From the sequence record OR757453.1: a stretch of 64,000 nt of DNA; one strand, written 5' to 3'. A program made the translations under genes and the position numbers. Source of the stretch: Escherichia phage BYEP01. The notes beneath the pieces were generated by a model. It was not told where the DNA came from. It saw only the letters and a list, made by a program, of their open reading frames with translations, and did not search any database. Below, one piece after another: positions 49,730-50,542 of the stretch (within the stretch, counting starts at the first letter, position 1; each line of letters opens with the position of its first letter).

Positions 49730-50542
49730 TTATTCGACCTTCTTAAATTTGCAATTGTCAAAATGGTATCTTTTAGCGTGAGACTTATCCATGATTTTAG
49801 AGCAGTGCGGGCATTTTAATTTTTCTCTGCTATGAGATACACCCGTGATAACTTTGCATTTATCGCCGTGGTATTTTCCATAATTTCCTACATCACATAT
49901 AATTCCGCAATGCGGGCAATTTCTCTTTTCGACTTTTGCAAGACCCTTAGATAGTTTATTTAAATACTTTTCGTATTTTTGGGGGTCACTTTTAAGCTCA
50001 GACCAAAAATCTTTCATCTGTTTAGAACATCTTTCTTTATATTCTAACATTTCGTTTTCTGATAACGATTCCAAATATTTCACTGAAGCTTTTCGAATAT
50101 TTGCATTAACTTCTTTTCTCTTTTCATCTGTCCATAAAGATTTAGTTTTTTTAATGCCTTTTCCGGCTTTTTTAATTCGTTCCTGTTTTAAATTTGGTGA
50201 TAGATTCGCCCAAAACTTTTTAATGGTTTCTGATCTAATTTTAGATGTTTCCTCTTTAATCCATCCGTAATCTTTACTTACAATTCTCTGCTCTTTTGTA
50301 CCCTTGGAGAATTTTATTAAAGCATAAGCCATTTCAGAATTTCGGTGTATTTTAAAAAGAAGCTCATGTGCAAAATAGTGTTCTCTTGCTGTCAGTAAAA
50401 CCTTGTTTTCTCTAGAATCATCTCCTCCCATGGATTTTGGGACAATATGGTGTGATTCTGTATAATAATCTAATTTTTTCTTATTAAGACCTCTTTTAAG
50501 AGATCTTTCTATAAGAGAGTCGTAAATTTTAGTATAATTCAT
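49730..50542 (-). CDS. HNH homing endonuclease, free-standing, between genes 13 and 14
   Basis: 270 aa; YTKIYDSLI…[35 protein letters not shown] plus C-terminal CPHCG…CPHCS zinc-finger-like pairs; start overlaps gene 13 stop. Confidence 0.8.

Follow-up and report, generated by a model that had tools for sequence, protein, structure and literature searches.

The junction between neck genes 13 and 14 of Escherichia phage BYEP01 very probably houses an intact and recently mobile free-standing HNH homing endonuclease gene of the Mob type, settled in the genome of a T6-like Tequatrovirus. The evidence comes from the 64,000-nt stretch of sequence record OR757453.1 that was analysed (hereafter, the window), from the predicted protein and from the corresponding junctions of related phages. 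Our confidence is lower for four aspects than for the identity and mobility of the gene, namely whether the enzyme would nick or make a double-strand break, its exact target, the immunity that substitutions may confer and the coupling of its translation to that of gene 13.

The endonuclease gene fills a compact junction between neck genes

A sequence-only reading of this DNA had described an HNH open reading frame that fills the 13/14 junction, with a start overlapping the gene 13 stop and a stop 1 nt from the gene 14 ATG, and the coordinates confirmed this arrangement, adding that the gene lies on the minus strand (Table 1). At the left junction the coding strand reads ...GTT GGA TGA with the endonuclease ATG embedded: the gene 13 TGA lies at 50539-50541 and the endonuclease ATG at 50540-50542, which gives a 4-nt overlap. 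At the right junction (GAA TAA T ATG on the coding strand), the endonuclease TAA (49730-49732) is followed by the single base 49729 and then by the gene 14 ATG. T4 has no insert here: a single nucleotide separates its gene 13 stop from its gene 14 ATG. The extra DNA compared with T4 amounts to 809 nt (49733..50541); its boundaries were set by eye and with a script, and a MAFFT alignment of the whole junction misplaced the gap. The source of the region is a T6-like Tequatrovirus, with 2.6 kb matching phages CrRp10, N2, SHFML-26 and T6 at 96-98% identity. Downstream of the endonuclease gene, genes 14 and 15 stand between it and gene 16.

Table 1. Coordinates of the endonuclease gene, its neighbours and its predicted parts in the window.
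Feature	Coordinates	Strand	Details and evidence
Free-standing Mob-type HNH homing endonuclease gene	49730..50542	minus	270 aa plus stop, ATG start (open reading frame listing); PHROG 655; Pfam HNH_4; T6 and other phages have a 99-100% identical gene at this site
Gene 13 (neck / head-tail adaptor)	50539..51468	minus	Upstream host gene; 309-aa ORF; BLAST against annotated phages
Gene 14 (neck / head closure)	48958..49728	minus	Downstream host gene; true ATG at 49726-49728; BLAST against annotated phages
ATGA overlap of endonuclease start and gene 13 stop	50539..50542	minus	GGATGA arrangement also in orthologue locus L069
Insert-linked tract at the 3′ end of gene 13	50542..50559	minus	Covers the final 18 nt of gene 13, with 7 substitutions; comparison of carriers with empty-site phages
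N-terminal HNH nuclease module, about residues 1-80	50303..50542	minus	Invariant residues; homology to RB7 MobD; beta-beta-alpha in the AlphaFold2 model
Catalytic core, residues 29-59	50366..50458	minus	Holds E29, H31, H32, N46, H55 and H59
Five long central helices, residues 89-203	49934..50278	minus	Probably a DNA-tracking linker of NUMOD3-like repeats
Zinc-finger-like unit 1 (CPHCG...), C209-x2-C212-x12-H225-x3-C229	49856..49918	minus	Predicted hairpin 206-217 and helix 218-224 (AlphaFold2)
Zinc-finger-like unit 2 (CPHCS...), C244-x2-C247-x12-H260-x3-C264	49751..49813	minus	Predicted hairpin 241-252 and helix 253-259 (AlphaFold2)
Purine-rich AAGAAGGT at the 3′ end of the endonuclease ORF	49737..49744	minus	8 nt before the gene 14 ATG

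The protein joins a conserved HNH core to two zinc-finger-like units

The predicted product matched PHROG 655, labelled 'homing endonuclease', over residues 1-267 (E = 1.8e-52) and Pfam HNH_4 with 25.6 bits against a gathering cut-off of 22 (E = 1.2e-5), and therefore the frame is no chance ORF. Among 5.8 billion proteins, 422 homologues had an E-value of 0.001 or lower, and many contained NUMOD3 motifs; no NCBIfam family matched the endonuclease. The catalytic residues whose loss would have pointed to a decayed remnant, E29, H31, H32, N46, H55 and H59, are all kept and, together with G40 of the same HNH motif, were invariant in an alignment of 80 homologues. An AlphaFold2 model built from this alignment (mean pLDDT 93.5) arranged strands 29-32 and 47-50 and helix 52-66 as a beta-beta-alpha core with a pLDDT of about 97. 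By motif and predicted fold, the protein thus belongs to the HNH (beta-beta-alpha-Me) superfamily. Fold matches of this nuclease core were weak (Cas8-HNH, GVE2 HNH, Gme HNH and McrA), a sequence search of solved structures returned marginal HNH-motif matches only (E of 0.08 or higher), and the HH...N...H motif aligned to the HNH domains of a group II intron maturase and of Cas8-HNH.

The CPHCG and CPHCS pairs that the sequence-only reading had noticed at the C-terminus are found at residues 209-213 and 244-248. Each belongs to a unit with the exact pattern C-x2-C-x12-H-x3-C, modelled by AlphaFold2 as a hairpin plus a helix. With the C2HC spacing of classical fingers and this predicted fold, the protein is zinc-finger-like in its C-terminal part; no Pfam zinc-finger model scored above its cut-off for the endonuclease, and the Foldseek matches of the two units, to CTCF and TRAF fingers, were weak. 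The 80-sequence alignment showed the ligands of unit 2 (C244, C247, H260 and C264) to be invariant, and unit 1 to be absent from most of the wider family; unit 1 is conserved in three orthologues from the same site. Further Mob-like HNH endonucleases annotated in T4-like phages match the two-finger region (residues 203-270) as well. For the helical region that precedes it, Pfam NUMOD3 (PF07460), which is present in many homologues and in one paralogue of the window, gave no match to the endonuclease at E up to 1.

The three orthologues (P0002-P0004) are the closest diverged homologues, encoded on metagenome contigs, with lengths of 265-267 aa and identities of 52-57%. Each of them is encoded directly upstream of the gene for gp14 (T4_neck-protein), and on two of the three contigs (L069 and L070) the orthologue is itself directly preceded by the end of gene 13. 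The gp13 and gp14 proteins of these phages are 69-79% identical to those of the window. P0002-P0004 retain every HNH residue, the two finger units and the linker between these, and all three genes end in a purine-rich motif right before the gene 14 ATG. Maintenance of the full architecture at the same site at this level of divergence indicates long selection for function and argues against a decaying remnant.

Comparison with Mob enzymes showed that the nuclease module is 46% identical to RB7 MobD over 117 aa (E = 2e-31). The gene had been proposed as the third member of an HNH paralogue family within the window, and tblastn indeed found two further copies that share the N-terminal HNH module, at 3247..3957 on the plus strand (E = 3e-20) and at 30598..31290 on the minus strand (E = 1e-21). 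In MobD and in these paralogues, which are 36-41% identical to the endonuclease, homology covers the N-terminal ~95-117 residues, and all of these proteins have in common the motif MNYxKIY...YTExHHIxP...N.V.LT..EH..AH. Their C-terminal halves are unrelated to that of the endonuclease, those of the paralogues consisting of NUMOD3 or I-HmuI NUMOD-like modules without zinc fingers, which fits a shuffling of DNA-binding modules and different target sites. Elsewhere in Tequatrovirus, the N-terminal module matched ORFs beside the nrdA, topoisomerase and uvsW genes; the position beside nrdA is that of T4 mobE.

Most 13/14 junctions are empty

Forty-six GenBank phage records carry the HNH gene at a protein identity of at least 95% (at least 99% in 34 of them), the next best match lying below 60%. 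The same 46 records cover the whole 2.6-kb query, and most of them annotate the gene as 'homing endonuclease'; the T6 RefSeq record holds this very gene at the same site under that name. Empty junctions were searched with a synthetic query that represents the empty site with the carrier allele, and that replaced a 53-nt query from the 3′ end of gene 13 whose identity bands were blurred by unrelated polymorphisms. The synthetic query was covered end to end in 591 of the 637 matching records, T4 included, and about 7% of the recognisable 13/14 junctions are occupied. The comparative look at T4-like phages that had been suggested thus found the junction empty in T4 and in most relatives and occupied in a minority. 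Taken together with the domain searches and the 46% identity to MobD, the empty junctions of T4 and of about 591 records bear out the claim that a free-standing HNH gene has been inserted between genes 13 and 14. The possibility that it encodes a conserved structural accessory protein, which the sequence-only reading had named as one that would refute its claim, is refuted by this sporadic occupancy (46 of about 637 records).

In more diverse T4-like phages, 60 of 65 IMG/VR loci have genes 13 and 14 next to each other, with gaps of 2-79 nt; these loci, the T4 junction and the 809-nt insert place the endonuclease as a free-standing gene between genes that abut in relatives. Among the five other loci, L005 carries the same HNH gene, L007 ends before gene 14, and L030, L039 and L067 contain an ORF of ~600 nt. 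The latter inserts belong to PHROG 314, and that of L039 passes the Pfam model SegE_GIY-YIG. These Seg-type GIY-YIG endonucleases occupy the same 13/14 niche in an otherwise compact junction; they differ from the HNH gene in coming from an unrelated nuclease family, in their PHROG and in residing in more distant T4-like phages (gp13 55-65% identical).

Conservation is much higher in the element than in its flanks

We compared seven carriers of the gene: the window, T6, the IMG/VR contig L005, SHFML-26, F1, G9062 and CJY920. Nucleotide identity among them was 98.9-100% in the endonuclease gene (mean 99.2%), compared with means of 95.0% in gene 13 and 94.6% in gene 14. Of the 813 columns of the endonuclease gene, 14 were variable; gene 13 had 110 variable columns among 927 (Fisher P = 3e-18), and the initial part of gene 14 had 40 among 474 (P = 2e-8). 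The edges of the low-diversity block are sharp, at about -18 and +813: variable sites occur at a density of ~8 per 60 nt up to -24, -18 and -8, are almost missing from the ORF and resume 12 nt past its stop. Nor do genes 13 and 14 group the carriers together. Gene 13 of T6 is closest to those of T4 and of the empty-site locus L004 (97.2-97.4%) and is 93-95% identical to those of other carriers, gene 13 of G9062 and CJY920 is likewise nearest to empty-site phages, and gene 14 of F1 is nearest to that of an empty-site phage (98.7%). Some copies have decayed, unless sequencing errors at homopolymers account for the changes: three of the seven are frameshifted, by -1 nt in SHFML-26 and F1 and by +1 nt in CJY920 (an UNVERIFIED record).

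Overall, the conservation of the element, its sharp edges, the incongruent flanks and the clustering of changes at the junction described below point to recent movement between diverged Tequatrovirus backgrounds. As read from these comparisons, the putative co-converted flanks are very short in recent transfers between such backgrounds, and the sharp-edged block leads us to place the inferred break near the insertion point, within ~20 bp. The high identity could also reflect, in part, a recent common origin together with recombination in the flanks, rather than homing driven by the endonuclease.

Seven linked substitutions mark the 3′ end of gene 13

When 4.1 kb of three carriers were compared with four empty-site phages, ten fixed differences were found, seven of which lie within the last 18 nt of gene 13, a clustering with a chance probability of ~4e-15. 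In this tract, T4 ...TTTGGAATTTTGGTAGGT is replaced by GTGGGAGTGTTAGTTGGA, and gp13 changes from FGILVG to VGVLVG. The host allele therefore differs from the empty, target allele right beside the insertion site by seven strictly linked substitutions. None of the 591 empty-site records has the carrier tract at an empty junction, their best full-length matches being T4-type (90.5%). These substitutions are candidate immunity or target-site changes: their linkage to the insert is observed, and they may make the carrier immune. Alternatively, the element may have brought them along from a diverged donor, with no selection for immunity involved. The nearest-looking allele, of the TGVLVG type from another genus (the L008 group), was rejected as the source, with seven differences from the carrier tract, the same number as T4, and the search yielded no donor of the 18-nt tract.

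Expression signals at the two junctions

An exact T4 late promoter (TATAAATA) is absent from the minus strand between 44763 and 57899, and the variants of TATAAATA with 1 mismatch that a consensus scan found within this region include none just upstream of the ORF. A scan for sigma-70 promoters and terminators gave nothing convincing on the minus strand of 49700-51470. No terminator-like hairpin was found on the minus strand in gene 13 or in the ORF; one lies between wac and gene 13, at 51481-51498. Because neither a promoter nor a terminator of its own was found, the endonuclease gene is probably a cassette without a promoter, expressed from the late transcript of the neck genes. The sequence thereby agrees with the expression together with the late genes that the sequence-only reading had inferred. 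This layout matches the experiments on mobE (PMC2790892) and a review that describes seven free-standing endonucleases of T4 as promoterless cassettes (PMC2988022).

As for translation, the ATGA arrangement suggests that synthesis of the endonuclease is probably coupled to that of gp13. Two of the linked substitutions create a GGGAG motif at 50553..50557, 10 nt before the endonuclease ATG, a large distance for a Shine-Dalgarno site. At the opposite end, the insert keeps the native TAA-N-ATG geometry (stop, 1 nt, ATG) before gene 14, and the purine-rich AAGAAGGT, which is Shine-Dalgarno-like, probably serves as a replacement ribosome-binding site for that gene. These two features are all that the sequence offers for the suggestion, made in the sequence-only reading, that neck protein stoichiometry would be left undisturbed. 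RNA structures hiding the start sites were also considered and rejected: with z-scores of +1.3 and +0.6, the folds of 90-nt windows at both junctions were not more stable than those of shuffled sequence, so that no regulatory RNA structure is supported.

Proposed mechanism and alternatives

The signals described above would be consistent with the following course of events. The late neck message would include the endonuclease, which would be translated at a low level through ATGA coupling and the weak GGGAG 10 nt upstream. On co-infection with a relative whose junction is empty (T4-type, ...CCATTTGGAATTTTGGTAGGT joined directly to TAATATGGCTAC...), the C-terminal helices and the two finger-like units would bind the conserved junction, and the N-terminal HNH domain would nick or cut within ~20 bp of it. 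Recombination-dependent repair of the T4 type would then copy the endonuclease gene together with a very short carrier flank, as the population data suggest. The carrier itself would be immune, since the insertion splits the site and the seven substitutions change the last 18 nt of gene 13. Finally, gene 14 would still be translated, with the 3′ end of the element keeping the stop-1 nt-ATG arrangement and the Shine-Dalgarno-like motif.

A different account of the same population data is that homing or ordinary recombination spread the gene in recent times and that the copy in the window no longer cleaves. Such an inactive passenger would persist if precise deletions are rare, and a deletion would disturb the gene 13 stop and the ribosome-binding context of gene 14. 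The ends of the element are indeed interwoven with the stop and start signals of the host genes, three of the seven carriers have frameshifted copies, a truncated form of 154 aa (P0005) is present in the protein database, and a divergence of only ~1% among copies makes purifying selection not measurable. Against this, the window copy is full length and keeps every catalytic and zinc-ligand residue, the protein is matched at 99% or above by 34 of the 46 carrier records, and the same-site orthologues at 52-57% identity keep the whole architecture, which requires long-term selection for function. We consequently regard the loss of activity in the window copy as unlikely. That the ORF is a product of chance or mis-annotation can be set aside almost entirely: an AT-rich, lysine-rich composition is all that speaks for it, and it is refuted by the PHROG match, the 422 homologues, the conserved catalytic residues and the confident AlphaFold2 model.

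HNH proteins encoded next to the terminase genes of cos phages are packaging helpers. A domesticated nuclease with such a role in DNA packaging, or acting as a weapon against the neck and packaging genes of co-infecting relatives, would fit a gene that lies three genes upstream of the terminase genes 16 and 17 and for which late expression is expected; homing endonucleases are also reported to affect competition between phages (PMC13096335). Two properties separate the gene from HNH helpers of the HK97 gp74 type: other genes separate it from the terminase genes, and it is missing from ~93% of related phages that have the same neck and terminase genes, so that it is not needed for packaging. 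Exclusion of competitors, for its part, would use the same cleavage mechanism as homing, and sequence cannot separate the two. We give domestication little credence, and an intact, mobile homing endonuclease gene remains the preferred reading.

A more specific version of homing by this gene is put forward tentatively, as we judge it somewhat less than even that all of its parts hold together. It would combine a hitherto undescribed recognition architecture, of five STPR/NUMOD3-like helices followed by tandem C2HC fingers, with a cut within ~20 bp of the enzyme's own insertion, unlike MobE and several Seg enzymes, which cut at a distance from theirs. The linked substitutions might do double duty, giving immunity to the carrier and placing a ribosome-binding site for the endonuclease inside the gp13 frame. 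HNH and GIY-YIG families might likewise have landed at the 13/14 junction independently of each other, making it a recurrent insertion target across T4-like genera.

Significance

T-even phages are crowded with Seg and Mob endonuclease genes, and in view of this abundance the gene matters little on its own: it is an ordinary, uncharacterised Mob-type gene that is already annotated in T6 and in dozens of relatives. Our literature search turned up neither a description of an endonuclease gene at the 13/14 junction nor a test of the T6 copy, and no biochemical or genetic report on cleavage, target site or super-Mendelian inheritance of this gene. Its interest lies in being a clean natural example of an element fitted into a tightly packed late operon, with an overlapping start, a preserved stop/start geometry and a motif resembling a ribosome-binding site. 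It equally illustrates the population signatures of homing, with an element far more conserved than its essential neighbours and a block with sharp edges, and the repeated invasion of one junction by unrelated nuclease families. Mapping of the target and of the cleavage position would extend the Mob group by an enzyme acting on T-even DNA beside its own insertion site, and would explain any localised marker exclusion at genes 13-14 in crosses of T6 with T4 or T2.

Comparison with known systems

The combination of a small nuclease domain with elongated DNA-binding modules is shared with I-HmuI, the intron-encoded HNH nicking enzyme of SPO1, and with the GIY-YIG enzyme I-TevI. The endonuclease differs from I-HmuI in not being intron-encoded, and neither its sequence nor its fold gave a significant match to I-HmuI. 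In I-TevI, the zinc finger lies in the linker, where it acts as a distance determinant (PMC2988022), as opposed to the CCHC chemistry and the tandem, C-terminal position of the finger-like units described here.

Closer parallels are found among T4-like phages. Mob-like HNH endonucleases beside genes 46/47 of Klebsiella and Cronobacter T4-like phages also combine an HNH domain, a helical NUMOD3 region and a C-terminal CPHCG...H...C finger. The same three parts make up the RB43 ORF named 'mobE' (locus L055), which, like the endonuclease, sits in the neck/tail gene cluster; it differs in having one finger instead of two, in lying at the junction of genes 14 and 15 and in being only ~32% identical.

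A further parallel is T4 MobE, whose gene is promoterless and co-transcribed with nrdA, and which makes an HNH-dependent, strand-specific nick in nrdB of T2, polymorphisms protecting the host allele (PMC2790892). Both are free-standing HNH genes between two conserved genes, nrdA and nrdB in the case of MobE (PMC2790892). A promoter of its own, which mobE lacks, was not found for the endonuclease gene either in the consensus scan; both genes lie on the same strand as the upstream gene, whose transcript the endonuclease gene presumably shares. Both proteins consist of an N-terminal HNH domain and a C-terminal DNA-binding part, and both genes are missing from close relatives and associated with clustered polymorphisms between host and target alleles. 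The differences concern the setting and the recognition part: the endonuclease gene lies among late structural genes and mobE among the middle-expressed nrd genes, neither an internal terminator nor an embedded promoter for the downstream gene was found at the 13/14 junction, and the endonuclease has two CCHC finger-like units at its C-terminus and a start codon that overlaps the upstream stop. They also differ in the position of the cut, for MobE nicks ~120 nt inside nrdB (PMC2790892), whereas the sharp low-diversity block suggests that the endonuclease of the 13/14 junction would cleave within ~20 bp of its insertion.

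Two endonuclease families invaded the gene 13/14 junction independently

The gene 13/14 junction, which in the window holds the Mob-type HNH endonuclease gene, also carries free-standing endonuclease genes in three more distant T4-like phages (see table). Since these inserts are unrelated to the HNH gene of the window, we conclude that two nuclease families invaded this junction independently. HNH ORFs were found as well between genes 14 and 15, in phage RB43 and in a metagenome contig, L068. The latter also harbours an orthologue of the 13/14 endonuclease and thus contains two such genes in its neck cluster.

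Features discussed in the text (window coordinates unless a locus is named)
Feature	Location	Strand	Length	Details
Mob-type HNH gene	3247..3957	+		C-terminal DNA-binding module I-HmuI NUMOD-like
Mob-type HNH gene	30598..31290	-		C-terminal DNA-binding module NUMOD3
13/14 junction endonuclease gene	L030 3427..4062			PHROG 314
13/14 junction endonuclease gene	L039 3500..4084			PHROG 314; passes Pfam SegE_GIY-YIG
13/14 junction endonuclease gene	L067 355..969			PHROG 314
14/15 HNH + NUMOD3 ORF	L055 (RB43) 4198..4860			Annotated mobE; one zinc-finger-like unit of CPHCG type
14/15 HNH + NUMOD3 ORF	L068 1621..2217			C-terminus also matches region of second (CPHCS) finger
Empty 13/14 junction	L008, L009, L011, L012, L020, around 3413..3448			Gene 13 stop and gene 14 start overlap as ATGA
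Gene 14, vB_EcoM_G9062	L074 327..884		558 nt	As annotated
GC hairpin, strong	51481..51498	-		GGGGCC-GCAA-GGCCCC (GCAA loop)
Split gene 17, whole	44759..47611	-		Three ORFs
Gene 17, N-terminal part		-	297 aa	Gene 17 sequence up to ...IYIDEC, then ~40 extra residues
Gene 17, middle ORF		-	206 aa	PHROG 15427 'endonuclease'; domains resembling TnsA and endonuclease I
Gene 17, C-terminal part		-	461 aa	~107 extra residues at N-terminus

The ATGA overlap geometry of the 13/14 endonuclease gene also occurs as a native arrangement of genes 13 and 14, because in five loci of another T4-like genus the two genes are joined in this way without any insert. There the junction reads GGATGATGAAT, and the gp13 C-terminus is ...TGVLVG.

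State of the endonuclease gene and its flanks in other carriers

In the deposited genomes of SHFML-26, vB_EcoM_F1 and CJY920 the endonuclease ORF is frameshifted, with a length of 812 or 814 nt compared to 813 nt when intact, and two of the three genomes annotate it as two hypothetical proteins. These frameshifts reflect either real decay or sequencing errors. In vB_EcoM_G9062, the matched region exceeds that of the other carriers by 54 nt, gene 14 is annotated at reduced length and its pairwise identity falls to ~90%, which together suggest an indel or rearrangement in gene 14.

Related features of the window

Two further Mob-type genes of the window share the N-terminal nuclease module of the 13/14 endonuclease and differ in their C-terminal DNA-binding modules. 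That on the minus strand is immediately preceded by uvsW, and its start codon is given as TTG in the ORF listing.

The 32-nt gap that separates wac from gene 13 contains a hairpin with U-rich sequence after it, and this hairpin overlaps the ribosome-binding region of gene 13. It may be either terminator-like or a stabilising hairpin.

Separately, the terminase large-subunit gene 17 is split in the window. The residues that follow IYIDEC in its N-terminal ORF look like an intein start. Gene 17 is unbroken in T4 and T6, and the split form is common to 17 phage records. This organization resembles the 'fractured gene' arrangement, in which a split intein is combined with a free-standing endonuclease (PMC2677866).
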